Source: a virus
Lineage: Duplodnaviria; Heunggongvirae; Uroviricota; Caudoviricetes
Direction: 5' to 3' (one strand)
Virus record (IMG/VR): IMGVR_UViG_2896601577_000003
DNA: 37,046 bases
Shown here one piece after another: positions 493-36,065 of the stretch. Each line of letters begins with the position of its first letter. Positions within the stretch are counted from its first letter, which is position 1. Under the pieces are notes generated by a model. That model saw nothing but the letters and a program-made list of their open reading frames with translations, had not been told where the DNA came from and made no database searches. The position numbers and the translations under genes are program-made.

Positions 493-854
493 ATGATTGA
501 TGTCTTAGGGCCGGAGAAACGCAGACGGCGTACCACACAGGAAAAGATCGCAATTGTTCAGCAGAGCTTTGAACCGGGGATGACGGTCTCCCTCGTTGCC
601 CGGCAACATGGTGTAGCAGCCAGTTATTTCTCTGGCGTAAGCAATACCAGGAAGGAAGTCTTACTGCTGTGGCCGCCGGAGAACAGGTTGTTCCTGCCTC
701 TGAACTTGCTGCCGCCATGAAGCAGATTAAAGAACTCCAGCGCCTGCTCGGCAAGAAAACGATGGAAAATTAACTCCTCAAAGAAGCCGTTGAATATGGA
801 CGGGCAAAAAAGTGGATAGCGCACGCGCCCTTATTGCCCGGGGATGGGGAGTAA
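493..854 (+). pseudogene. insC: IS2 orfA (InsC), frame-broken
   Basis: ORF 448..720 contains [44 protein letters not shown] (InsC N-terminus) and then leaves the InsC frame near 620. An in-frame TAA follows at 771-773 (MEN*). Intact InsC should be about 121 aa ending near 854. Confidence 0.7.
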
Positions 855-1717
855 GCTTAGTCAGCCGTTGTCTCCGGGTGTCGCGTGCGCAGTTGCACGT
901 CATTCTCAGACGAACCGATGACTGGATGGATGGCCGCCGCAGTCGTCACACTGATGATACGGATGTGCTTCTCCGTATACACCATGTTATCGGAGAGCTG
1001 CCCACGTATGGTTATCGTCGGGTATGGGCGCTGCTTCGCAGACAGGCAGAACTTGATGGTATGCCTGCGATCAATGCCAAACGTGTTTACCGGATCATGC
1101 GCCAGAATGCGCTGTTGCTTGAGCGAAAACCTGCTGTACCGCCATCGAAACGGGCACATACAGGCAGAGTGGCCGTGAAAGAAAGCAATCAGCGATGGTG
1201 CTCTGACGGGTTCGAGTTCTGCTGTGATAACGGAGAGAGACTGCGTGTCACGTTCGCGCTGGACTGCTGTGATCGTGAGGCACTGCACTGGGCGGTGACT
1301 ACCGGCGGCTTCAACAGTGAAACAGTACAGGACGTCATGCTGGGAGCGGTGGAACGCCGCTTCGGCAACGATCTTCCGTCGTCTCCAGTGGAGTGGCTGA
1401 CGGATAATGGTTCATGCTACCGGGCTAATGAAACACGCCAGTTCGCCCGGATGTTGGGACTTGAACCGAAGAACACGGCGGTGCGGAGTCCGGAGAGTAA
1501 CGGAATAGCAGAGAGCTTCGTGAAAACGATAAAGCGTGACTACATCAGTATCATGCCCAAACCAGACGGGTTAACGGCAGCAAAGAACCTTGCAGAGGCG
1601 TTCGAGCATTATAACGAATGGCATCCGCATAGTGCGCTGGGTTATCGCTCGCCACGGGAATATCTGCGGCAGCGGGCTTGTAATGGGTTAAGTGATAACA
1701 GATGTCTGGAAATATAG
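812..1717 (+). CDS. insD: IS2 orfB (InsD) transposase, DDE catalytic domain
   Basis: 301-aa ORF; sequence matches IS2 InsD as I recall it (…[32 protein letters not shown]…[19 protein letters not shown]…). Confidence 0.9.
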
Positions 1718-1924: not shown

Positions 1925-2059
1925 AGCGACCTCTCTTATTGTAGTGCTTGCACTATTCTAGGTTGTATTCTCTAAGATTTAAACATGACTTTCTCTATAT
2001 AATGATTTTTAGCATTAGTTAATAAACGAACGGCACTCTAAGGAGCGCCGTCAAAGATA

Positions 2060-4918
2060 TTATTCTGATGTCACTCTTTGCGAGTGAGCTATTTTTAAAT
2101 CAGCGTTTCCTTCAAATACTACATTCAACTCATAGTTAAGAGTTAGCTTGAATTTTTCTGAGTCACTTTTGATATTCTCTGAAGTGACATTTACTAACTT
2201 ATTATTATCATATTCTCTAATAATTAATTTAGTGAAGTAGTTATCCTTTACCACAAGAGAAAATGGTTGATTAACAAATGGTAAGAAGTAAACCTTACGG
2301 GTACCGGATTCAGTAGTTATGTTCATAGAGCCATCATCATTTTTTCTCATTAGTTCTCTGAGGTTGGGATTATCGAAAAGCATACGATTATATTGCTGAA
2401 AGATCTCTTTACTCATCACAAGAACCAGTTTGCCAGCCAAGTCAGCAGATGATTTTATGTGATCAATCAACATATTGAAATCTTCTATTACGGTATGTTG
2501 CGAACAGCCAGTGCTAAATAAATTTGAAAGTATTATTCTCTGGATGTCCTTGAGAATTAAGTCTGCTTGAATATCACCTTCATTGATATAAGGGATGGAT
2601 TCTATTCCTTCGGCATACGGTTCTTTATCTATCTTAATAGATATCTTATGTTTTGTGAAACAATCGCTAGCCTGCTTAAAATCAATAGATTTGAAAAGTG
2701 AAAGAGGGAGCGTTTTCTTGATGCGTTTACGAAGATGTTCTGATGTTTTACGTGCAGTGCTATCTAGTCGATGTACATCTATGGCAGCATCCTGAAGTCT
2801 CATATCAAGATCTTTCTTTAGCATGTTAATATGCTCTTGAAGCAACTTTCTTAAGTTTTCTTTTTTTGTTTGGAGATCGTCCAATGTTAAAGTCAGCTTG
2901 ATTTTAGTGTATTCGATGGAGTTACAAATTTTTGATAATACTCCAATGAGTCGTTGCTTCTCACGATATGTTATATAGTTGTTTTCTATTGCTTCTTTTA
3001 TTTCTTTTGATACGCTATCGTTCTTGTTAGAAAAAATTAATAATAGCTGAACCCATGATTGTTCCATATCAATAAATCCACAGTCAAAAACATTACTGTA
3101 AACTCTGCCCATCACCATGTCTGTTTTATCATAGTCACGTAAACGCCTTGCTAAACTATTCATCCACCCATTGTGCTCCATATTTTCAGACCATGTCCAC
3201 AGGCAGATTCTAATTAATATCTTGATTAGTTGGCTTGCATTATCAATTTCTTCAGTGGGAGTTTCATATCCACCGGTTTGGTCAATAAGTTTACCCTCTA
3301 AAATAAGTTTAATGTAATGTGTCATTAGTTTGTCAGAAGTATTGATTCTTGATGTCAGATAAAGACATGTGCATATACGCATGTCAGTCAACGCATTTAT
3401 GATGGCAATATTGAACCACTCTCTGTCTGAATTGAAGTTTAGTTTTTTGGATATGAAAAAAACCGGGTTAAAAAGCTGGCCTTTGTAACTGTATTTTTCT
3501 ACCGAATGGCTGTCAATATTCATTGAGTGCTGCCATCGGTTAATAAGATCGACGGCTGTATCAATAGTAGAAGGATCGCGAGTCTGTGTTGCATCAATAA
3601 TCATCGATGGAAGTTCTTGTAGTTGCGTTTTGCAAAATAATTCAAATAAATCTGAATTCTCTGTATTGCAGAAACGAAAGTTTATGCTTTCTTGATATTG
3701 CTCCCAAACAGTGGTATAGGTTCTTAATATACGATTATAACGTGAACGAAGCGAGGCATTTAAGAGTGATTGGTTGTTTCGGAACCATTCTGTCAATATT
3801 GACCATTGTGAACGAGTAATTCCCATATAGATACAAAGTTCATTGCTGATAAGATGTTTTCTATTATTGATAATACGCACTCCGCTCCAAAGACATAATT
3901 CAAAAAATCTTTCAGAAAGATTAATTTTATCCATGGAATTATTTGATATTTTATAAACTTCATCTGAAAACTCATATTGAAAACTCCGTTCAAATAATTC
4001 TGTAGTGATCAGTAAGAAGTTATTGTTGGTATTATCATCTTGAAAAAAATACAAATCGCAGAGATTATTAAAGTTATTAATTAATGCAGAGATAGCATTG
4101 TCAAAACTAATGAGATCAGAATCCCGCAGATACATATACGTATCTGCTGTTATAGCCTGCATTGTAAGACTTACGGAAAAATCTCCTCCTTTAATCGGAG
4201 CCCTATAAAAACATTGCTTAAGTATTTTTATTAATAAGCTGTCTGGTTTGATATTTTTAACGCTAAAAAGTATCTTACCCGTGGATTCTGTTTCTTTTGT
4301 ACGATTATCACCAATGACAAATGACGCAAAATGATTCTTCTTTTTTAGTTGGTAATTAATAAGATTAAGAGTAAGTTGAAAAGGACGGTGATATAAACTT
4401 AACTCATCTTCCTTAGAATAACTGCTAGCCACAGATATGTATTCTCCTTTGTAATCAGCTTGCTTGATTTCTAAATTTGAATAGTTATGTTTTTGATAGA
4501 TAGGGTATAACCTAAGCTTGGCTGAGATTTTGTTACAAATATGGGGCATTACTATTTCGAAGGCAATGTATCGCTTTATAATTATTTGCCGTTTTACATC
4601 ATCAAGAATTTCAAGACTCACGATAAAGAACCAAATAGAAAGAACTATGTTTATCAAAAGCCATAATATGCTGATTAGACAAGCTATACCATAAAGATAA
4701 CTTCCAAAGACAGTTTTAATTAGTACACTGAGAAGTATAAATCCTGATAAGAAAAGCCCGCTGAGTCCAGCAAGCATGAATCCTGAGTAACGCTGATAAG
4801 CAGTTTGGGCTATTTTTCTATCTGCCTTTTTTTGGAATAAGATACTTACTAAACCTATAACAAGGGGTATACAATACCAATAATTGTCAATTGGCCACTT
4901 AAAATGGTTGTTTGCCAT
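2060..4918 (-). CDS. Hypothetical 952-aa membrane-anchored protein, unknown family (cargo gene in AT-rich island)
   Basis: Uninterrupted 2859-nt ORF in visibly AT-rich DNA. The first ~110 aa contain 3-4 hydrophobic helices (CIPLVIGLVSILF; FMLAGLSGLFLSGFILLSVLI; YLYGIACLISILWLLINIVLSIWFFIVSL). The remaining ~840 aa are Lys/Asn/Ile-rich with a coiled-coil-like stretch (…LTLTLDDLQTKKENLRKLLQEHINMLKKDLDMRLQD…). I found no Walker A, PD-(D/E)xK, HEPN or kinase motif by eye. Confidence 0.6.
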   Translation of the reverse strand: MANNHFKWPIDNYWYCIPLVIGLVSILFQKKADRKIAQTAYQRYSGFMLAGLSGLFLSGFILLSVLIKTVFGSYLYGIACLISILWLLINIVLSIWFFIVSLEILDDVKRQIIIKRYIAFEIVMPHICNKISAKLRLYPIYQKHNYSNLEIKQADYKGEYISVASSYSKEDELSLYHRPFQLTLNLINYQLKKKNHFASFVIGDNRTKETESTGKILFSVKNIKPDSLLIKILKQCFYRAPIKGGDFSVSLTMQAITADTYMYLRDSDLISFDNAISALINNFNNLCDLYFFQDDNTNNNFLLITTELFERSFQYEFSDEVYKISNNSMDKINLSERFFELCLWSGVRIINNRKHLISNELCIYMGITRSQWSILTEWFRNNQSLLNASLRSRYNRILRTYTTVWEQYQESINFRFCNTENSDLFELFCKTQLQELPSMIIDATQTRDPSTIDTAVDLINRWQHSMNIDSHSVEKYSYKGQLFNPVFFISKKLNFNSDREWFNIAIINALTDMRICTCLYLTSRINTSDKLMTHYIKLILEGKLIDQTGGYETPTEEIDNASQLIKILIRICLWTWSENMEHNGWMNSLARRLRDYDKTDMVMGRVYSNVFDCGFIDMEQSWVQLLLIFSNKNDSVSKEIKEAIENNYITYREKQRLIGVLSKICNSIEYTKIKLTLTLDDLQTKKENLRKLLQEHINMLKKDLDMRLQDAAIDVHRLDSTARKTSEHLRKRIKKTLPLSLFKSIDFKQASDCFTKHKISIKIDKEPYAEGIESIPYINEGDIQADLILKDIQRIILSNLFSTGCSQHTVIEDFNMLIDHIKSSADLAGKLVLVMSKEIFQQYNRMLFDNPNLRELMRKNDDGSMNITTESGTRKVYFLPFVNQPFSLVVKDNYFTKLIIREYDNNKLVNVTSENIKSDSEKFKLTLNYELNVVFEGNADLKIAHSQRVTSE

Positions 4919-5178
4919 TCGGTTAATGAATGCCTAAACGGGAAATAATGTAAAAGATTATTTTTTATAAATAATTCGTTTAAATATCCAACATAAAGTA
5001 GTACAAATGAAAAAGCTGATATGCAAAGTACTGATTTAACCGGTGAGGATGTTAATCTTATGATGTTTTTTTCAATAAAATTCCATTTTAAATTCGAATA
5101 AAATGGATTTTTAACCATTTTATTACGAACATAGTTCTTTGCTAAAATCTCTGTTGCACTTAAAAATTGTCCAATCAT
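4855..5178 (-). CDS. Small hypothetical membrane ORF (107 aa), either a separate gene or the frame-shifted N-terminus of the 952-aa gene
   Basis: ORF overlaps the 5' end of the large ORF by 64 nt in another frame. Contains a hydrophobic helix (VLCISAFSFVLLYVGYL). Same AT-rich composition. Homopolymers GGGG/AAAA lie in the overlap. Confidence 0.35.
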   Translation of the reverse strand: MIGQFLSATEILAKNYVRNKMVKNPFYSNLKWNFIEKNIIRLTSSPVKSVLCISAFSFVLLYVGYLNELFIKNNLLHYFPFRHSLTEWQTTILSGQLTIIGIVYPLL

Positions 5179-5426
5179 GAATTACTCTTCTATAAAGTGT
5201 GGGTCTACTAACTAAACTGGAACTTTTACTATTGAGTCATATTCCCTTGGACGGGATGGACTGTGAAGATTATACTTGACTTCCTCTGTCATGTGGGAAA
5301 AACATCCGTATTATTGTTAGCATCTGGTTGATGCCCCAACCTCTGACATCTAGTGGGCTGATACATTATCTTTTGTTCTTACTGTCAGTGTAGAAGCACA
5401 TCTCAAAAATAATATTTTTAAGAGAT

Positions 5427-6534
5427 TTATTCTGTTTCTGCTATCCATTCCGGGATTTTTGCTTCAAGTTCAAGCTGCGTGGTAAAGCCGCTGTTATCAA
5501 TGGTGTGCTCGGCTTTTGCAATAATCCAGTCCTGATAATCAATCTCGCTTTTAAAGCCTGTCACTGTGCCATGCATTTCGGGATAGAGTTCTGCACGACC
5601 ACGCGCCAGCGTGATGGAGAATGATGCGGCTCCGCGTTGTAGCTGCTGCCACTTTGCCGCCGCTGCGCGTCTTGCTGCCTGCTCGTTCTGATAAGTCTTG
5701 CGTAACACAAACACGTTGCCTTCCGCACCTTCCATATAGTCGCCTTCCCGACTGCTACTTTTCTCCTTTTTGGGTTTTGGCGGTTTGCGGCGTTTCACGC
5801 TGACTTTTTTCTTTTTCCCGTAATTAAGATCAAGCCAGTAGGCGCGTACCCCCGTATACGCCTCGCGGTCAGCAATGCGGAACTGATGGCGATCGCCGCT
5901 GCTGCGTGTAATGGCGAACGAGGGCAACGGCTGCCCCTGTGCGTTCACGCCACCACCTGGCATGATGAATAACAGATTGCCGCTTTTTACCGTGGCGATT
6001 GCTCCCAGCATTTCCGCCATGCGCGTAAGAAAGGACATGTCGCTTTCTTCGGTCTGGTCGGCGTGGTCGATTTCGATATCCATCAGCATTTCGCTGATTT
6101 GCGGTTTCAGACCGTATCGATGAGCGATGGCGGATACCACACGCTCAACGGTCACATCATGCCAGGACACCTCACGTTTAACGTTAAATTCATCCCGAAA
6201 ATCTGCGCTTCTGGCTGAAACAGTCAGCCTGTCCGGCGGTCCTTCGTGAGCGATTTCATCAACAATGTAAGTGCCTTTTTCTGTCAGCGGTTCCCCTTTC
6301 CAGCCAATGAGAACCGTCAGACGCGGCCCCGTGGCGGTAGCTGCAACTGACCATCCGCATCATCCAGCGTGATGGTGAGCTGGTCCGCCTCAAATCCCCG
6401 GTTGTCGGTCAGTTACAGGCTCATCAGGCGCTCCGCCACGCCTGACAGCGTTTTACCCTCCGAGAGAATATCAAAATCCGGCATTTTCACGGGGGCCGTG
6501 CCCTGACTGAGCAATTGCATGGTGGTGTCGGTCA
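5427..6534 (-). pseudogene. D: P2 gpD-like tail protein; C-terminal 247 codons intact, N-terminal third frame-broken
   Basis: ORF 5427..6170 matches the P2 D C-terminal region as recalled (…ATVKSGNLLFI…ITRSSGDRHQFRIADREAYTGV…REGDYMEGAEGNVF…SGFTTQLELE…). ATG at 6534-6532 gives MTDTTMQLLSQGTAPVKMPDFDILSEGKTLSGVAERLMSL, then an in-frame TAA and frame changes before 6170. Confidence 0.8.
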
Positions 6535-6692: not shown

Positions 6693-7877
6693 ATGAGTGA
6701 AACTCGTTTTCATGGTGCCCGTGTTACGGAGAATACCGACCTGGTAACAGCGATTAACGATGTTGATTCCAGCGTTATCGGTATCGTGGCAACGGCGGAT
6801 GATGCGGACGCGAAGCTGTTCCCGCTGAACAAGCCCACACTGCTGACCCGCGTCAATGACGTGCTGGGAAAATGCGGGACAACGGGGACGCTTTATCGTG
6901 CGCTTAAGGCCATCGCAGACCAGGTGAGCACAAAGGTGATCGTCGTTCGCGTGGCTGAACACAAAGAAGAAGACGGAAAGACGCAGGATCAACTGGTTAT
7001 CGGTGGTTCTGAGGATGACGGCAGCTATACGGGGATGTATGCGCTGCTTGTTGCAGAGCAGGATGAAAGCATCGGATACCGTCCGCGTATTCTGGCCGCG
7101 CCGGAGCTGGACACGGAGGCGGTAACAAAATCCCTGTGCGTGATTGCAGATAAACTGCGCGCGTTTGTGTATGCCTCATGTCATGGCTGTAACACGATGG
7201 CCGAGGCAATTACCTACCGCCAGAAATTCAACGAACGTGAGGTGATGCTCTTATGGCCGGACTTCATCGCCTACAACCCGAAAAATGGCAAAAACGAAAC
7301 GTTCCCCGCGCCTGCCTATGCGTGCGGCCTTCGTGCGTACATTGACCATGAACAGGGATGGCACAAATCGCTGTCCAACGTTCCGGTTAAAAATGTGCTG
7401 GGGATGTCGAGGCATGTGTTCTGGTCGTTGCAGGCCGAAGACAGCGATGCCAACAGCCTCAACAACAAAGAAATCACGACCATTATTCGTCGCAACGGGG
7501 TCCGCTTCTGGGGTAACCGCACACCGGAAACGAACGCCTACATCTTTGAGGTGTATACCCGAACCGCACAGGTGCTGGCTGATTCAATTGCGGAAGCGCA
7601 GTTTGAAACCATCGACAGTCCACTGACGCCTGCGAATGTGAAGGATGTTATCAGTGCCATCAGGGCAAAACTGGATTCACTGGTGACTGCCGGGAAACTG
7701 ATTGGCGCGGAGTGCTGGTATGACGTGGTGGATAACAGCACCACGGATTTACGTCAGGGACGTGTGCGTATTCGCTACAAATATACGCCCGTTCCGCCAC
7801 TGGAAGACATGGAGCTTTACCAGACGTTTACTGATGAATACTTTGAACCCGCATTTGCGGTGCTGGGAGGTGCCTGA
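6693..7877 (+). CDS. FI: Contractile tail sheath protein (P2 FI-like)
   Basis: 394 aa; motifs …FPLNKP…RILA…LRAF…REVMLLWPDF…EQGWHKSLSNV…RFWGNRT…TRTAQV…YTPVPPLE… match the P2 FI sheath family. AAGGGG RBS upstream. Confidence 0.9.
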   Translation: MSETRFHGARVTENTDLVTAINDVDSSVIGIVATADDADAKLFPLNKPTLLTRVNDVLGKCGTTGTLYRALKAIADQVSTKVIVVRVAEHKEEDGKTQDQLVIGGSEDDGSYTGMYALLVAEQDESIGYRPRILAAPELDTEAVTKSLCVIADKLRAFVYASCHGCNTMAEAITYRQKFNEREVMLLWPDFIAYNPKNGKNETFPAPAYACGLRAYIDHEQGWHKSLSNVPVKNVLGMSRHVFWSLQAEDSDANSLNNKEITTIIRRNGVRFWGNRTPETNAYIFEVYTRTAQVLADSIAEAQFETIDSPLTPANVKDVISAIRAKLDSLVTAGKLIGAECWYDVVDNSTTDLRQGRVRIRYKYTPVPPLEDMELYQTFTDEYFEPAFAVLGGA

Positions 7878-8353
7878 TGGCTGTGCCAAAACATCTTCGC
7901 TTTTTTACGCTGTTTGTGGATGGTGAAAACGAAGTGGGTAATGTGACGTCCGTCACTCTGCCTAAGCTGACGCGCAAAACCGACAGCTACCGGGGTGGTG
8001 GCATGATGGGTGCGGTAAGTATTGATCTCGGTCTGGACGACTCCGCGCTTGATGCGAGCTTTGTCATGGGGGCGCAGTTCGTGAGCTGTTCCTTAAGTAT
8101 GGCGGCACGATTGACGGCACGCTGCTGCGTTTTGCGGGTGAATACTACACCGATGCAGAAAGCGACCTGTATGAAGTCGAAATGCGCGGACGTGTGACGG
8201 AAATTGATATGGGGGAAGCCAAACAGGGCGAAGCCACATCACACACTTACGCCATTAAAACACCTACTACAAGCTGAGTGTTAACGATCGCCCGTTGTGG
8301 GAGATTGACCTGCTGAACTTCATTTACCGGAAGGACGGGGTAATGACTCCAAC

Positions 8354-8731
8354 TTATTGATAGTGTTTTATGTTCAGATAATGCCCGATGACTTTGTCAT
8401 GCAGCTCCACCGATTTTGAGAACGACAGCGACTTCCGTCCCAGCCGTGCCAGGTGCTGCCTCAGATTCAGGTTATGCCGCTCAATTCGCTGCGTATATCG
8501 CTTGCTGATTACGTGCAGCTTTCCCTTCAGGCGGGATTCATACAGTGGCCAGCCATCCGTCATCCATATCACCACGTCAAAGGGTGACAGCAAGCTCATA
8601 AGACGCCCCTGCGTCGCCATAGTGCGTTCACCGAATACGTGCGCAACAACCGTCTTCCGGAGCCTGTCATACGCGTAAAACAGCCAGCGCTGGCGCGATT
8701 TAGCCCCGACGTATCCCCACTGTTCGTCCAT
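8354..8731 (-). CDS. insB: IS1 InsB (expressed as InsAB' by -1 frameshift)
   Basis: 125-aa [43 protein letters not shown]… matches IS1 InsB. Confidence 0.9.
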
Positions 8732-8775
8732 TTCCGCGCAGACGATGACGTCACTGCCCGGCTGTATGCGCGAGG

Positions 8776-9051
8776 TTACCGACTGCGGCCTGAGTTTTTT
8801 AAGTGACGTAAAATCGTGTTGAGGCTAACGCCCATAATGCGTGCAGTTGCCCGGCATCCAACGCCATTCATGGCCATATCAATAATTTTCTGGTGCGTAC
8901 CGGGTTGAGAAGCGGTGTAAGTGAACTGCAGTTGCCATGTTTTACGGCAGTGAGAGCAGAGATAGCGCTGATGTCCGGCAGTGCTTTTGCCGTTACGCAC
9001 CACCCCGTCAGTAGCTGAACAGGAGGGACAGCTGATAGAAACAGAAGCCAC
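8776..9051 (-). CDS. insA: IS1 InsA
   Basis: 91 aa [46 protein letters not shown]… matches IS1 InsA. Confidence 0.9.
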
Positions 9052-9219
9052 TGGAGCACCTCAAAAACACCATCATACACTAAATCAGTAAGTTGGCAGC
9101 ATCACCGAAGGACGGCAAGGACATTGTGCCCGATCGCATCCGTTCCGCGCTTGGGCTTGGCTGATAAGTAATATGCTGGCGGCGCAGTGCGTCGCCTCTG
9201 ACTGAAAAGGAGACAACAG

Positions 9220-9594
9220 ATGAAAGACATCGATACTGAAACCCGGAATAACACCGTGGCGGATAATGTGACGGCAGTTGAGGATATGGCTGTCGAACGT
9301 GGCGTAAAACTGACCCGACCAATTGAGCGTGGTGGCGAAAAAATCACGTATGTGGAGATCACCGGGGCTATTGAGCAGGCTGGATCCCTGCGTGGTCTGT
9401 CGCTGTCTGATGTGCTGAATCTGAAAGCGGATACCATGTTCACGCTGTTGCCTCGCGTGACCTCGCCACGACTGGATGAAGTGATGATTAAAAAAATGTC
9501 GTCACGCGATTTTATTCAGTTGTGCGCTGTGGCTGTAAATTTTATGAGCGAGCCAGACTCTGGCGCGAAGAGCGTGCAGGAGACGGCAGCGTAA
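9220..9594 (+). CDS. E: Tail assembly chaperone (P2 gpE-like)
   Basis: 124-aa ORF between the tube and tape-measure genes. A downstream ORF in the -1 frame (open from 9492 to 9758) overlaps its 3' end, the conserved chaperone frameshift arrangement. Confidence 0.8.
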   Translation: MKDIDTETRNNTVADNVTAVEDMAVERGVKLTRPIERGGEKITYVEITGAIEQAGSLRGLSLSDVLNLKADTMFTLLPRVTSPRLDEVMIKKMSSRDFIQLCAVAVNFMSEPDSGAKSVQETAA

Positions 9595-9758
9595 TCACCC
9601 TGGTGTGCTTTGAGCACATCGAAGATCTGGTGGCGGATATTGCCGCCATTTTTAACTGGTCGCCCGCCGAAATCTTCATGATGACGCCCTGCGAAGTGGT
9701 TAGCTGGCGTGAGCGAGCGGCACTTCGTAGCGGGAATGCAGACAATGAAGACTCTTGA
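9492..9758 (+). CDS. E' extension reached by programmed -1 frameshift (E+E' fusion)
   Basis: -1 frame is open from 9492. A run of seven A (9490-9496, …ATT AAA AAA ATG… in the E frame) lies exactly where the two frames overlap. Confidence 0.55.
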   Translation, partial: KNVVTRFYSVVRCGCKFYERARLWREERAGDGSVITLVCFEHIEDLVADIAAIFNWSPAEIFMMTPCEVVSWRERAALRSGNADNEDS

Positions 9759-12551
9759 TATCCGGGTCGCTTTCAGCGCCGTTGACAGGCTGACCCGGCC
9801 TGCCGAAAACGCCCGCCGCCTGATGGGGCAGTTTGGTGACTCCATCCAGCGAACGCAGGGGGCGATCAAAAATCTCGAGCGTCAGGCGCGATCATTTGAG
9901 CGCGCCCGTGACGCTGTCAGTAAAGCGGATGCGGGCATCGTGAAAGCACGACGCCAGCTTAACGCCCTTAATCAGTTACAACGCACGGGTACAGTGCTCA
10001 GCGAAAAACAACAAAAGCTGATGCAGCAGTTAAGCACCCGGCTTGAACGCCTGAATGAATCGCGCACACGGGAAATTCAGAAAATGCGGGAGCTTGGCGG
10101 AGAGCTGAAACGCCACGGCATTTCCCTGACAGGCAGCGATAACACCATCCAGCAGGCCATCAGACGCACCGAACAGTACAACAACCAGCTTGAACGCGAA
10201 CGGCAGGCGCTTGCGCGTGTAACACGGGCGCGTGAGCGGTATTCGCGCGCGCAGGAAACAGCGGGAAAACTGAAAACAGGTGGTGCGCTGGCAATTGGTG
10301 CGGCAGCGGCGGGCGGCTATGCTGCCGGGCGTTTTTTGCAGCCTGCGATCGGGTTCGGCAAAGAGATGTTCCGCGTTCAGGCACTGACGCGAATCGACCA
10401 GAACAGCCCGCAGTTTAAGGCGCTGCGTGAGCAGGCGTTAAAACTTGGCTCTGAAACGCAGTTCACCGCAGGCGATGCCGCCAGTGGACAGGCATTTCTT
10501 GCAATGGCTGGCTTTACACCACAGGCCATTCAGGCTGCGCTCCCTGGCGTACTGAGCATGGCAACGGCTGGCGGTATGGACCTCGGTGAGACGGCGGATA
10601 TTGGCTCAAATATTCTGACGCAGTTCGGTCTTTCTGCTGACCAGATGGACCGGGTCGGCGACACACTCACCGCAGCGTTTACCCGTACCAACACTGACCT
10701 TCGCGCACTGGGTGAAACCATGAAATATGCAGGTCCGGTGGCGGGTAAGCTGGGAATATCTCTGGAGCAGGCCGCAGCGATGGCGGGCGTGCTGGCGAAT
10801 ATGGGTATCAGGGGGAGTGATGCTGGTACGGCAATGCGTGCCAGCCTGGCTCGTCTGGCATCACCGCCAAAGGCGGCAGCAGAGGCGCTGAAAGAGCTTG
10901 GCGTGTCTGTCTCGGATGCCGGGGCAAAATGCGCCCGATGGAGGATGTGCTGGCTGACCTTTATAAAGCTACCCGCAAATACGGGGAAGTTGACCGGGTA
11001 TCGTTCTTTAAGGACATTGCCGGAGAAGAGGCTTTCACATCATTTATGGCCCTCGTTGATGCGGCAGGTGACGGCTCCTTACCCAAACTGAGAAAAGAAC
11101 TTGAAGGCGCGCGCGGTGAGGCTGAACGCACGGCAAAGGTTATGGCCAACAACCTTGACGGCGATCTGAAATCACTCAGCAGTGCATGGGAAGGGTTGCG
11201 CATCCGCATTGCAGATCTGATTGACGGTCCGCTGCGTTCTGTCACGCAGTGGCTCACGCGTGTGGTATCAAAGGTGACGGCGCTGGCGCAGGCCCATCCC
11301 GCACTGACGCGCCAGCTACTGATTGCAGGCGGTGCATTGCTGGCAATGACTGCAACGGTTGGCTCGTTGTCGCTGGCTATTGGTGTGCTTGCTGGCCCGC
11401 TGGCAAAACTGCGTCTTGGTTTTTCCCTCCTGACCGGATCAATGAATGCTGTCAGGGTTCTGCCAGCACTATGGGGAATGGTGACGGGTTCCGTTTCTTT
11501 ACTGGGAGGCGCTATCGGGGCGTTGTTCAGTCCGGTTGGTCTTATCGTGGCTGCGCTTGCCGGAGCTGCCGTTCTTATCTGGAAATACTGGGATCCCATC
11601 AGGGCATTTTTTGCCGGGGTGTTCAGCGGGATTATGGAAAGGCTGACCCCGTTGCGCGAAACATTTGAACGGTTTGGTCCTGTTTTTGACGCAATCGGGA
11701 GTGGGATCAGCCAGGTGTTTAACTGGTTTAAATCGCTGCTGTCACCGATGGAGTCCAGCAAGGAAACTCTGGATAAATGTACCAGTGCTGGCGAGATATT
11801 CGGTAACGTTCTTGGCGGTGCGTTACAACTTGTTCTGACACCTGCAAAAATGTTGCTGGATACGCTGGCGTGGATACTTGAAAAGCTTGGTGTGCTTCCG
11901 GATGAAGCGGAAAGGGCGCGCAAGAAAATCGAAGACGCACAGCGTGCGGCCATTCTTCAGGACAAGGTTGCCTTGCTTCAGGGGGACCTGGCGAAAATCA
12001 ATCCGCCGAAGCCTGTGGAAAATGGCAATGGCACCGGAGGTGATAACCCCAAAGACAATAAACCGCTCACAGACAGCAATACCGGTACGCTGCGCAGACT
12101 CAGCAAAATTGCTGATAACACAGGTAAGCTGGTTGAGGAGACGAAAAAACGCATTGGCCCCGGCGATATTGTCTTTAAAAACCTGCCCCGAGCACTTGCT
12201 GTTCGTGGGGAGTGGCAGGAGCGGAAGATTGCGCAGGTCAGTAAGCCTGCCCCCGCAATTAATATCACACCCGTGGTTCCGGCTCCGCTGCCTCCGGCGC
12301 TGGTCCCTGTTGTTGCGGCCAGCTCCCGCCCGGTGGCGGAGGCTATACGATCTCCAGTGGCATCAGTTCCTGTAACTTCCCGTAACCGGGAGCCTGTTGC
12401 CTCCGGATTTGGTGGTGAAATTCATGTTCATCTGCATAACGTTGTTACGCAGAATCCCCGCGAACTGGCGAAACTGGTCGGTGAAATGGTCAGGGCAGAA
12501 ATGGAACGGCGCGCCCGTGCCGGGCGTGGCTGTTTTTACGATAAAGATTGA
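9736..12551 (+). pseudogene. T: Tail tape-measure protein (P2 gpT-like), split into two overlapping ORFs by a frame break
   Basis: ORFs 9709..11091 and 10929..12551 together give an ~810-aa Ala/Gly-rich protein with a hydrophobic central segment, typical of tape-measure proteins. The frames switch between about 10900 and 11090. Confidence 0.85.
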
Positions 12552-12557
12552 GGAGTC

Positions 12558-13052
12558 ATGGCCATGATGATGATCTACGGCATGTTTGTTTTTGAGCTGC
12601 GCACGCTGCCGCATCAGCAGTTACAGCAAAACAAAAGCTGGCGGCATGTGAAAAATGAACGCGTTAACCGTTCAGCAAGCTGGCAGTATATCGGTGCAGG
12701 TGATGATCGCATCGTTCTTTCTGGTGTGCTTTATCCTGAAATTACAGGTGGCGAAGTGTCGCTGTCGCTGCTGACCACGCAGGCGTATACAGGACGACCC
12801 TGGCCTTTGATTGATGGCGTCGGGCAGATTTACGGCATGTATGTCCTGACTGAAACGAATACGACCCGCTCCGAGTTTGATCGCTACGGTAAGGCGAAAA
12901 AGATAGAATTTTCACTGACTCTTGAACGCTGTGATGAGGATTTGCGGGAGCGCCTGCAATCCTCATCGTTCAGTGATATGCTGTCCGGCTTCAAAGATAA
13001 GGTGACATCATCTCTTAACAGCGCGGCCAGTTCAGTTAAAGGGCTGTTCTGA
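12558..13052 (+). CDS. U: Tail protein (P2 gpU-like)
   Basis: 164-aa ORF immediately after the tape-measure gene; sequence is consistent with the P2 gpU family as recalled. Confidence 0.8.
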   Translation: MAMMMIYGMFVFELRTLPHQQLQQNKSWRHVKNERVNRSASWQYIGAGDDRIVLSGVLYPEITGGEVSLSLLTTQAYTGRPWPLIDGVGQIYGMYVLTETNTTRSEFDRYGKAKKIEFSLTLERCDEDLRERLQSSSFSDMLSGFKDKVTSSLNSAASSVKGLF

Positions 13053-13097: not shown

Positions 13098-13697
13098 CCT
13101 GAGTCTGCCCGGTTGTTTCTTCAGTCTGTATATCGCCTACAGGGTGATAACGATAAATCGTCGATGTGCCAATGCCGTAAATTATTGCCAGTTGTTTTCT
13201 GTCGTGCCCGTTTTTGATTAGCCTTGCTATTTGCTCATGCTGTTCTTTTGTCAGCTTCGGTCGACGTCCGCCTGTGCGCCCCTTGCGCGCGCTGCCGCCA
13301 GCCCGGCCAGTGTACGTTCAACAATTAATTCACGTTCCATTTCAGCCAGGGCACCCATCACGTGGAAGAAAAAACGCCCCATTGGAGAAGATGTGTCTAT
13401 GCTGTCGGTCAGACTGCGAAAATTAATCCCTCGCTCCCGTAGTTCCCCGACGAGAGAAATCAGATGTTTCATGCTTCGCCCGAGGCGATCCAGTTTCCAG
13501 ACAACCAGCGTGTCACCTTTTTGAAGGCGCTTTAAAGCGCGTTTTAATCCCGGTCGGTCTGTCTTTGTCCCGCTTAATTTATCTTCAAATATTTGTTCAC
13601 ATCCTGCACAAACAAGAGCGTTTCGTTGCAGGTCTGTATTCTGGTCATTTGTTGATACCCTTACATAGCCAATCAGCACACTGAATCTCCCGTCCAA
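13081..13697 (-). CDS. Serine DNA invertase (Hin/Gin/Pin/Cin family), one frame break near the catalytic-domain/HTH junction
   Basis: N-terminus …LIGYVRVSTNDQNTDLQRNAL…DTLVVWKLDRLGRSMKHLISLVGELRERGINFRSLTDSIDTSSPMGRFFFHVMGALAEMERELIVERT… is typical of this family. The C-terminal HTH (GRTGGRRPKLTKEQHEQIARLIKNGHDRKQLAIIYGIGTSTIYRY) is read in a shifted frame from about 13255. Confidence 0.85.
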
Positions 13698-15715: not shown

Positions 15716-17186
15716 TTAAATACTCCCCGCGTTATACCACGTCCCATTAATGCAATACTGAATTGGCCTTGCCTGTGTTGTATCAATTAATTCATCACGG
15801 TTTCCGTTAACTGAACCCGTAACGACATAACCTGACCTGTCAGACCAGCCGGGACCATTCCATGTCTGAACAGATGACAGACCGCCAAGGCGAATACCTG
15901 TAATAAACCTTGAGTTACATTCTGCCCGCGTATATGCACCAACATCTCCCGCTGAAGGTTTTCGTGTCGTGGTATAGAAATCTGACCAACCTAATTCAAC
16001 CCGGTAATGACTCCAACTTATTGATAGTGTTTTATGTTCAGATAATGCCCGATGACTTTGTCATGCAGCTCCACCGATTTTGAGAACGACAGCGACTTCC
16101 GTCCCAGCCGTGCCAGGTGCTGCCTCAGATTCAGGTTATGCCGCTCAATTCGCTGCGTATATCGCTTGCTGATTACGTGCAGCTTTCCCTTCAGGCGGGA
16201 TTCATACAGTGGCCAGCCATCCGTCATCCATATCACCACGTCAAAGGGTGACAGCAAGCTCATAAGACGCCCCAGCGTCGCCATAGTGCGTTCACCGAAT
16301 ACGTGCGCAACAACCGTCTTCCGGAGCCTGTCATACGCGTAAAACAGCCAGCGCTGGCGCGATTTAGCCCCGACGTATCCCCACTGTTCGTCCATTTCCG
16401 CGCAGACGATGACGTCACTGCCCGGCTGTATGCGCGAGGTTACCGACTGCGGCCTGAGTTTTTTAAGTGACGTAAAATCGTGTTGAGGCTAACGCCCATA
16501 ATGCGTGCAGTTGCCCGGCATCCAACGCCATTCATGGCCATATCAATAATTTTCTGGTGCGTACCGGGTTGAGAAGCGGTGTAAGTGAACTGCAGTTGCC
16601 ATGTTTTACGGCAGTGAGAGCAGAGATAGCGCTGATGTCCGGCAGTGCTTTTGCCGTTACGCACCACCCGTCAGTAGCTGAACAGGAGGGACAGCTGATA
16701 GAAACAGAAGCCACTGGAGCACCTCAAAAACACCATCATACACTAAATCAGTAAGTTGGCAGCATCACCATTCAACCCCATAACCATCACGAGCCGACCT
16801 GTAGGAAATGCCACCATTTTTATAATTCACACGGAATTGTACGGCAGGACAGCTACCAGCATTTATATTAAAGTGAAGAATTAATGTAGATGCACCACCA
16901 ATCAGGGCGTTATATGCACTACTATCCCAATTCCATCCAATGGATGTATCACCATTAACAGTATTACCTGTTTGTCGGAGTGCAAATGCATTGACATTTT
17001 TGGCACTAATTGAAATATCGCTAGAACCATCAAAACCAACTCCAGCAATTTTTCGTGCTGTTTTCAGCTTTGTTGCAGTAGCGGCATTGCCGGACAGTTC
17101 CCAGAAAGGCCACCGCTGAATGTTTGTCGATTGGTCCAGGTATTCGCTGTACTGAGTAACGGTATTTTCTCCCCGCTTGTGCCGAG
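15716..17186 (-). pseudogene. Tail-fibre variable C-terminal segment (Sv') joined in frame to H, interrupted by IS1 copy 2
   Basis: Reading on from H through the crossover site gives …AKNVNAFALRQTGNTVNGDTSIGWNWDSSAYNALIGG…DGYGVE | IS1 | …GWSDFYTTTRKPSAGDVGAYTRAE…IQYCINGTWYNAGSI, stop at 15718-15716. Confidence 0.7.
16003..16769 (-). mobile_element. IS1 copy 2 inserted inside the invertible tail-fibre cassette
   Basis: Same termini as copy 1. Perfect 9-bp target-site duplication ATTCAACCC at 15994-16002 and 16770-16778. InsB intact (16018..16395); insA frame-broken at a C-run (ORFs 16440..16667 and 16532..16714). Confidence 0.95.
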
Positions 17187-31745: not shown

Positions 31746-32902
<1,157 letters not shown>

Positions 32903-34757: not shown

Positions 34758-36065
34758 TGAACCGCCCGGGAATCCTGGAGACTAAACTCCCTGAGAAAGA
34801 GGTAAACAGGATGACTAAAAATACTCGTTTTTCCCCGAAGTCCGTCAGAGGGCGATTCGTATGGTTCTGGAAAGTCAGGGCGAATATGACTCACAGTGGG
34901 CGGCAATTTGTTCCATTGCCCCAAAGATTGGCTGTACACCGGAGACTCTGCGTGTCTGGGTACGCCAGCATGAGCGGGATACCGGAGGCGGTGATGGCGG
35001 GCTCACCACCGCTGAACGTCAGCGTCTGAAAGAGCTGGAACGTGAAAATCGTGAACTGCGCCGCAGTAACGATATCCTTCGCCAGGCTTCCGCTTATTTT
35101 GCGAAGGCGGAGTTCGACCGCCTCTGGAAAAAGTGATGCCACTGCTGGATAAGCTGCGTAAGCTGTACGGGGTCGGACCGGTATGCAGTGAACTACATAT
35201 TGCCCCGTCAACGTATTACCACTGTCAGCAACAGCGACATCATCCTGATAAACGCAGTGCCCGTGCGCAGCGCGATGACTGGCTGAAGAAAGAGATACTG
35301 CGCGTATACGATGGGAATCATCAGGTATACGGTGTGCGTAAAGTCTGGCGTCAGTTGTTACGGGAAGGTATCAGAGTGGCCAGATGCACTGTGGCACGTC
35401 TCATGGCGGTTATGGGACTTGCCGGTGTTCTCCGGGGTAAAAAGGTCCGTACGACCATCAGCCGGAAAGCCGTTGCCGCAGGCGACCGCGTAAACCGTCA
35501 GTTCGTGGCAGAACGACCTGACCAGCTGTGGGTGGCTGATTTTACTTACGTCAGCACATGGCAGGGCTTCGTCTATGTGGCGTTCATCATTGATGTGTTT
35601 GCCGGATACATCGTGGGGTGGCGGGTCTCATCGTCCATGGAAACGACATTCGTGCTGGATGCTCTGGAGCAGGCGTTATGGGCCCGTCGACCGTCCGGCA
35701 CGGTCCATCACAGTGATAAAGGTTCTCAGTATGTATCGCTGGCCTACACACAGCGGCTTAAGGAAGCCGGATTACTGGCATCAACAGGAAGTACAGGCGA
35801 CTCGTATGACAACGCGATGGCGGAGAGCATCAATGGTCTTTACAAAGCGGAGGTAATACACCGTAAGAGCTGGAAAAACCGTGCAGAAGTGGAACTGGCC
35901 ACACTCACGTGGGTGGACTGGTATAATAATCGACGATTGCTGGAAAGGCTGGGCCATACTCCTCCGGCAGAAGCAGAAAAAGCTTATTATGCTTCCATCG
36001 GAAACGATGATCTGGCAGCCTGAGTTCACAGATAAAACACTCTCCAGGAAACCCGGGGCGGTTCA
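34758..36065 (+). mobile_element. IS3-family element (IS629-like, about 1.31 kb) inserted between C and int
   Basis: Imperfect terminal inverted repeats TGAACCGCCCGGGAATCCTGGAGA… (34758…) and …TCTCCAGGAAACCCGGGGCGGTTCA (…36065). orfA from about 34811 (MTKNTRFSP…, one frame break near 34840) and orfB 35133..36023 with a DDE domain; A AAA AAG slip motif near 35124-35130. Flanked by the direct repeat CGAA (34754-34757 and 36066-36069). Confidence 0.85.

Follow-up and report, generated by a model that had tools for sequence, protein, structure and literature searches.

A probable P2-type E/E+E' frameshift cassette in a degraded P88-like prophage, with A_AAT_TTT as the likeliest slip site

Frameshifting in the tail chaperone genes is described for long-tailed phages, including the gpG/gpGT pair of lambda, and tail assembly is sensitive to the proportion in which both proteins are made (Xu, Hendrix and Duda 2004; reviewed in PMC5009743). 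In the FETUD operon of P2, the products E and E+E' arise by a programmed -1 frameshift (Christie et al. 2002, as cited in PMC3091744); PMC3091744 gives the slip site as TTTTTTG and the products as 91 and 142 aa, and it reports P2, KS5, KS14 and KL3 without a hairpin.

The DNA analyzed here, called the window, is the whole 37,046-nt stretch of the IMG/VR record IMGVR_UViG_2896601577_000003, which is assigned from its sequence to a P88-like prophage of Xuanwuvirus (Peduoviridae). Its E/E' cassette adds one more ordinary case to the P2-type E/E+E' frameshifts already known, differing slightly in its heptamer, and is carried by a dead prophage. Like P2, the window has the gene order FI, FII, E, E', T, U, an E homologous to that of P2 and a GpE domain in the -1 frame; the proposed slip site falls in the same column that ends the E domain, no hairpin follows it, and the predicted fusion is colinear with the 142-aa E+E'. 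Unlike P2, the window has its heptamer, A_AAT_TTT, one codon upstream of the P2 T_TTT_TTG, the TTG of which is ATG in the window; furthermore, the tail of E past the slip site is 17 codons long as against 7 in P2, the N terminus of E is extended by about 25 residues, and the linker from the slip site to GpE is longer by about 10 residues. With lambda gpG/gpGT the pair would share a common N-terminus for both products and low-level -1 slippage, and the locus likewise lies between the major tail/tube and tape-measure genes. It differs from lambda G/T in having no detectable sequence homology, another slippery sequence and a contractile tail; the slippery sequence of lambda is G_GGA_AAG.

Within its own group, the E-E' region of the window was 98-99.7% identical to that of phages 503458, 520873, P88_4B11 and phiSM, and about 85% identical in nucleotides to that of P88, Chuche, 500465-2 and PhiR44_2. 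P88 and the other Xuanwuvirus/Gemsvirus prophages compared (NC_026014, NC_049343, Chuche, PhiR44_2) have the same architecture, the same run of seven A's (A7) near the start of the overlap and the same A_AAT_TTT. Unlike the P88 type, the clade of the window reads AAATTTTATG and not AAATTTTTTG at the slip site, and most of its members are without a -1-frame TGA between the A7 run and the heptamer.

Gene order and anatomy of the E/E' cassette

The cassette is flanked by FII, the tail tube gene, and T, the tape-measure gene, in the P2 order FI-FII-E-E'-T-U, and the window is colinear with P88_4B11 over these genes (Table 1). A tail-chaperone pair between the tube and tape-measure genes had been proposed in a sequence-only reading of this DNA, and it was borne out by the GpE domain in the -1 frame, the match of E to PHROG 103 and the P2 gene order.

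Table 1. Positions of the features of the window discussed in the text
Feature	Coordinates	Strand	Basis or remark
IS3-family transposase ORF	812-1714	+	Pfam rve + HTH_21
952-aa ORF	2063-4918	-	in insertion 1966-5430 relative to P88_4B11
Tail sheath gene FI	6693-7877		Pfam Phage_sheath
Tail tube gene FII, IS1-interrupted	7877..9164	+	Pfam Phage_tube on 5' part; blastn vs P88_4B11 and IS1 ends
IS1 in FII	8339-9106	-	strand is that of InsA/InsB; target duplication copies at 8330-8338 and 9107-9115
Gene E, tail assembly chaperone, 124 aa	9220..9594	+	ORF list; PHROG 103; tblastn to P2 E
A7 run, codons AAA AAA A(TG), Lys-Lys-Met of E	9490..9496	+	rejected as programmed slip site
A_AAT_TTT, likeliest -1 slip site	9537..9543	+	heptamer scan; alignment column; constraint switch
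E' extension, -1 frame, 72 codons	9543-9755, stop TGA 9756-9758	+	Pfam PF06528
GpE domain	about 9630-9737	+	3' of the E stop
Tape-measure gene T, split pseudogene	9745..12551	+	Pfam PhageMin_Tail; alignment to P88_4B11; frames 9709..11091 and 10929..12551
GpU	12558-13052		Pfam
DNA invertase gene, truncated	ORF 13251..13697	-	1-nt deletion at about 13278
Second IS1	about 16003-16770		inside invertible tail-fibre segment
IS3-family transposase ORF	31779-32501	-	Pfam rve + HTH_21
IS3-family transposase ORF	35133-36020	+	Pfam rve + HTH_21

By direct reading, a Shine-Dalgarno (SD) sequence, AAGGAG, was found about 8 nt upstream of the ATG of E. The -1 frame is closed upstream by a TAA at 9489-9491, opens at 9492 and reaches a stop ending at 9758, and its overlap with E, 9492-9594 (103 nt), agreed with what had been claimed. 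The -1 ORF matched Pfam Phage_P2_GpE (PF06528) with 46.2 bits against a cut-off of 23. For E itself, the match to Pfam Phage_TAC_7 was weak (20.7 bits, under the cut-off of 25) and that to PHROG 103 'tail protein' was strong (126.6 bits); tblastn of E matched the E genes of P2, 186, PSP3, KS14 and RSA1 with E values of about 1e-7 to 1e-9, that of P2 at 34.8% identity and E = 3e-7. By this homology E would be a gpE-type chaperone, an assignment that is marginal on Pfam alone. No NCBIfam model was found for E, E' or the fusion. Taken together, E and E+E' are predicted to form a tail-chaperone pair of the usual P2 type, dependent on a -1 ribosomal frameshift.

Candidate slip heptamer and the switch of reading frame

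A heptamer scan of the 103-nt overlap found A_AAT_TTT as the only in-frame canonical X_XXY_YYZ heptamer, and the slip site is most likely this heptamer, judged from the sequences compared, and not the A7 run. It stands at the conserved position that closes the E domain, and the P2 heptamer TTTTTTG itself is missing there (TTT ATG). Heptamers of the form H_HH.U_UU.Y rank among the most efficient in E. coli (PMC4066793). A_AAT_TTT was retained in each of the 89 sequences recovered by similarity search, which comprised IMG/VR prophages together with 13 full-length phage records, and in the further IMG/VR loci found by pattern search its conservation was built into the search pattern; the window was identical to the commonest haplotype over 9478-9600. 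A T_TTT tetramer at 9510-9513 was rejected as a candidate, being C_TTT in the P88 clade and lying where the -1 frame is unconstrained, and direct reading revealed no slippery motif at 9544-9594.

The E-E' regions of 13 Peduoviridae lineages, close relatives, two bacterial genomes and IMG/VR prophages were then compared; the bacterial genome contigs, scanned with E, yielded two loci, both of the P88 type. The fusions were built by a procedure that, applied to P2, returned 91 and 142 aa, the sizes given in the literature. In the MAFFT alignment of the fusions of the 13 lineages the heptamers share one column, at the Phe(-Leu) codons that end the E domain. T_TTT_TTG occupied this column in 11 of the 13 lineages, including P2, 186, KS14, RSA1, SEN4 and SEN8; ST16-OXA48phi5.4 had C_CCT_TTC, and a Mannheimia phage had G_GGA_AAG further downstream. 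The A_AAT_TTT of the window (Asn-Phe) overlaps the T_TTT_TTG column, and the P2 TTTTTTG aligned with 9540-9546. A_AAT_TTT lies outside the interval 9486-9525 that the sequence-only reading gave for its candidate site; the A7 run is 41-47 nt 5' of the heptamer, and the position first proposed was mislocated by about 45 nt. In SEN4 and Shewanella M16-3, the -1 frame opens exactly at the heptamer. Among the distant genera, conservation of the 16 residues before the Phe was in frame 0, the -1 frame of that stretch holding stops in P88, KpCP052639 and SEN4, and the 16 residues after it scored higher in the -1 frame in every comparison, the motif W..ER.GDG carrying the signal.

The same switch was seen at synonymous sites. 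Between the window and the P88 clade, the stretch 9497-9536 contained 7 synonymous and 2 non-synonymous changes in the E frame and 0 and 10 in the -1 frame; at 9544-9591 the counts were 1 and 8 in the E frame and 6 and 3 in the -1 frame, and the E'-only stretch gave 6 and 4. The contrasts between the two stretches of overlap gave Fisher p = 0.015 and 0.003, and as they rest essentially on one deep split, that of the window from the P88 clade, few independent substitutions underlie these values. Because the counts flip at the heptamer, constraint on the E' frame, or on both frames at once, starts there and not at the run, and 9537-9543 is where constraint leaves the 0 frame for the -1 frame. 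The earlier proposal had been made to depend on conservation of the E' frame in related phages, and such conservation was present from 9537 onward and absent over 9492-9536.

Stimulatory elements were looked for by folding 60 and 100 nt 3' of each candidate site and of the P88 and P2 sites, and no signal of a downstream structure was obtained at either candidate, in P88 or in P2 (z from -0.73 to +1.19). In the window the z-scores were -0.46 and -0.73, and neither a hairpin downstream nor an SD-like stimulator upstream emerged, with no SD-like element visible 6-17 nt 5' of the site; the stimulatory hairpin that had been named earlier as a check was not seen, as has been reported for P2. Since no hairpin or SD-like stimulator was found, the efficiency of slippage may be low. 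A local hairpin at about 9557-9582 was rejected, as it is not conserved in P88, and an Rfam scan of 9100-9900 returned a chance osmY match alone (E = 0.6).

Most ribosomes would translate E and then stop, and a minority would slip back by one base on A_AAT_TTT, the tRNA-Asn of the P site moving from AAU to AAA and the tRNA-Phe of the A site from UUU to UUU. The shifted ribosomes would read on in the -1 frame and yield a 179-aa E+E' with the GpE domain, the junction being ...LCAVAVNF/YERARLWREERAGDG... (that is, ...AVAVNF/YERARLW...) and the junction peptide ...DFIQLCAVAVNFYER. This predicted fusion aligned with the 142-aa P2 E+E' in BLASTP with 91.7 bits (E = 6e-29), colinear across the junction. 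Here we infer slippage at the heptamer, its efficiency and the chaperone role alike: by analogy with lambda gpG/gpGT (PMC5009743) and P2 E/E+E', the two proteins would act as chaperones of the tape-measure protein and bring in tube subunits, and the weight of their ratio, which would be fixed by slip efficiency, is carried over from the same systems. On the whole we are fairly confident that the locus encodes an E/E+E' pair made by a -1 slip at A_AAT_TTT, and that the A7 run would be mere Lys-Lys-Met codons.

Slip-site variation in the genus and competing readings

Sequences of the P88 type read GTA AAT TTT TTG (AAATTTTTTG), in which the two heptamers A_AAT_TTT and T_TTT_TTG overlap and are not separable as slip site. 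Every window-type sequence, on the other hand, reads GTA AAT TTT ATG (AAATTTTATG), so that the P2-type heptamer is gone and A_AAT_TTT alone is left. This ATG variant was present in at least 120 IMG/VR contigs and 60 distinct sequences, many of them full-length prophages of 33-39 kb; the P88_4B11 record also has it, and phiSM was identical to the window from the A7 run through AAATTTTATG. Since phiSM is described as temperate and fully functional (PMC6456863), tail formation is compatible with the loss of TTTTTTG. Elsewhere, phiT5282H has CCCTTTTTTG, and ST16-OXA48phi5.4 keeps C_CCT_TTC alone. These comparisons suggest that the slip site has most likely moved by one codon with the register of the fusion kept. 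We lean towards a turnover of slip sites within one genus, in which the ancestral AAATTTTTTG would have given way to a window clade relying on A_AAT_TTT and, in parallel, a CCCTTTTTTG-type sequence to C_CCT_TTC in the Klebsiella phage ST16-OXA48phi5.4. If this is true, a natural frameshift site has shifted by one codon with the length of the fusion unchanged (F-Y-E versus F-L-E).

It could be argued instead that the signal of the window clade is broken, the change of TTG to ATG having killed T_TTT_TTG, with E+E' made inefficiently and A_AAT_TTT a bystander. The absence from the window of the heptamer found in 11 of the 13 lineages agrees with it, as does the heavy degradation of the prophage, but the ATG variant is widespread and not private to a dead prophage, being found also in the plaque-forming phiSM and in the P88_4B11 record. 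Furthermore, the E' frame is open and conserved across the clade, ST16-OXA48phi5.4 has independently kept an upstream heptamer alone, and A_AAU_UUU falls among the heptamers rated efficient in E. coli (PMC4066793). We consider a broken signal improbable, and a working A_AAT_TTT remains the preferred reading.

Far less of the evidence fits the site put forward by the sequence-only reading, a programmed -1 shift at the A7 run, whether through slippage on T_AAA_AAA or A_AAA or through an extra A added in transcription. Such a shift would join E(1-92) to NVVTRFYSVVRCGCKFYERARLW...E', with the junction ...LDEVMIKKNVVTR (...MIKK-NVVTR...). The seven A's are present as claimed, A-runs are classic sequences of both ribosomal and transcriptional slippage, and the run is kept as A7 or A8 across Xuanwuvirus-type sequences; the -1 frame opens inside it, at 9492, in the window and in 173 of about 180 window-type loci. 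The register, however, is wrong: the E frame passes through the run as ATT AAA AAA ATG (Ile-Lys-Lys-Met), which is T_AAA_AAA and not X_XXY_YYZ, and the P-site codon would have to re-pair with UAA. At best the run offers an A_AAA tetramer, a recognized -1 motif though a 'less efficient' one (PMC4066793). A -1-frame TGA was moreover found at the equivalent of 9507-9509, five codons past the run, in 99 P88-type loci (65 distinct sequences), in 6 window-type loci and in a few others, about 110 related loci in all; in the 6 window-type loci it was produced by CGC becoming CGT, a synonymous substitution for E. Wherever this TGA occurs, slippage at the run would lead to a dead-end peptide, and the P88-type sequences retain the A7 run despite it. 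The -1 frame between the run and 9537 also shows the absence of synonymous changes noted above (0 of 10). A fusion at the run would drop the conserved last helix of E (SSRDFIQLCAVAVNF), losing the matches there, and scored 81.3 bits with P2 E+E' as against 91.7 bits.

The run itself is unremarkable, because its count in the window matches that of shuffled sequence: 16 A7 runs against 11.7 +/- 4.1 in dinucleotide shuffles, of which 19 of 100 reached 16. In the 13-lineage alignment, the Lys-Lys codons behind it were confined to the genus and absent in other genera. Seven A's are also short for efficient transcriptional slippage. The features of A-run sites such as those of dnaX and IS elements, namely an X_XXY_YYZ register together with a shifted frame that is open and conserved downstream, were thus not found at this run. 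A programmed site there is very unlikely in our estimate, and the stops that relatives carry in the -1 frame already refute it for the most part. As the -1 frame is open from the run in most window-type loci, a trace of slippage on the A_AAA tetramer is possible, and the open frame might provide the window clade with a minor second junction beside that at A_AAT_TTT.

We give hardly any credence to the last alternative, that no frameshift occurs and a small 'GpE family' protein is made separately from an internal GTG at 9603 or 9522: public records of relatives do list a 51-aa 'tail protein' CDS equivalent to 9603..9758, and PHROG 1756 was built from ORF calls starting at the 9522 equivalent, but by direct reading no SD sequence precedes either GTG, whereas E has AAGGAG, which makes independent initiation unlikely; -1-frame conservation starts at the heptamer, 60 nt 5' of GTG 9603, the records of 186, KS14 and Mannheimia 587AP1 annotate a frameshift, and P2 E' is described as made only as an E+E' fusion from the E start (PMC3091744, citing Christie 2002 and Xu 2004). 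The match of the -1 ORF to PHROG 1756 is uninformative on the junction, because the profile begins at the GTG of the ORF caller. The E' domain, having no SD of its own, is reachable solely through a -1 shift from E.

Some variation in the length of the A-run was also seen. Three IMG/VR loci (variant GATCAAAAAATG) have A6 instead of A7, which would truncate E and reflects either a homopolymer mutation or a sequencing error. One further locus (L022:801-1154) has A8 (ATA AAA AAA) with the -1 frame open; its record bears the title 'Vagococcus sp.', and as an enterobacterial P88-like prophage would hardly be expected in that host, the sequence is probably contamination.

Annotation of related records and state of the prophage

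The main value of these results lies in the correction of annotation. In all five RefSeq/GenBank records of the Xuanwuvirus type that were checked (L001, L002, L009, L017 and L019; phages 503458, P88, Chuche, P88_4B11 and 500465-2), E and a separate 51-aa 'tail protein' are given unjoined, and the correct product would be an E+E' fusion of 176-179 aa made by a -1 shift at AAATTTT(TTG). These records start E' at a GTG without an SD sequence and label the tube proteins 'head closure'; such errors are propagating. For readers of sequence, it is a caution that the first homopolymer in an ORF overlap need not be the slip site, and that the site is better located from its register, from the stops that relatives carry and from where constraint on synonymous sites changes frame.

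The window is a nearly complete P88-like prophage, but a dead one. An IS1 splits the tube gene FII, flanked by a 9-bp target duplication (GAAGGACGG), and a 1-nt deletion at about 10920 (a G5 run in P88_4B11, G4 in the window) leaves the tape-measure gene in two frames. Because of these two lesions, the frameshift cassette is intact yet non-functional in practice. The IS1 junction in FII was found in no complete E. coli RefSeq genome, and this IS1 copy shares no more than 97-98% identity with the IS1A of E. coli, so that Shigella or another relative may be the host. A second IS1, with the target duplication ATTCAACCC, lies within the invertible tail-fibre segment, whose arrangement also differs from that in P88_4B11, and the loss of one nucleotide cuts the DNA invertase gene short. 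Insertion sequences riddle the prophage: it holds two IS1 copies and three IS3-family transposase ORFs, the latter all in segments missing from P88_4B11.

Within E', the window carries a change of its own, G to T at 9690, which turns a Gly of the conserved GpE domain into Cys (MMTPCEVVSW in the window; MMTPGEVVSW in 503458, P88_4B11 and P88) and possibly reflects relaxed selection in a dead prophage. Finally, a 952-aa ORF was noted in a cargo position beside late gene D. It had no match in Pfam, in PADLOC or by tblastn in 50,697 phage records; among 5,426 complete E. coli genomes its region occurred in only 5, annotated there by PGAP as 'MFS transporter' or 'hypothetical protein', and it is possibly an uncharacterized moron or defence gene.
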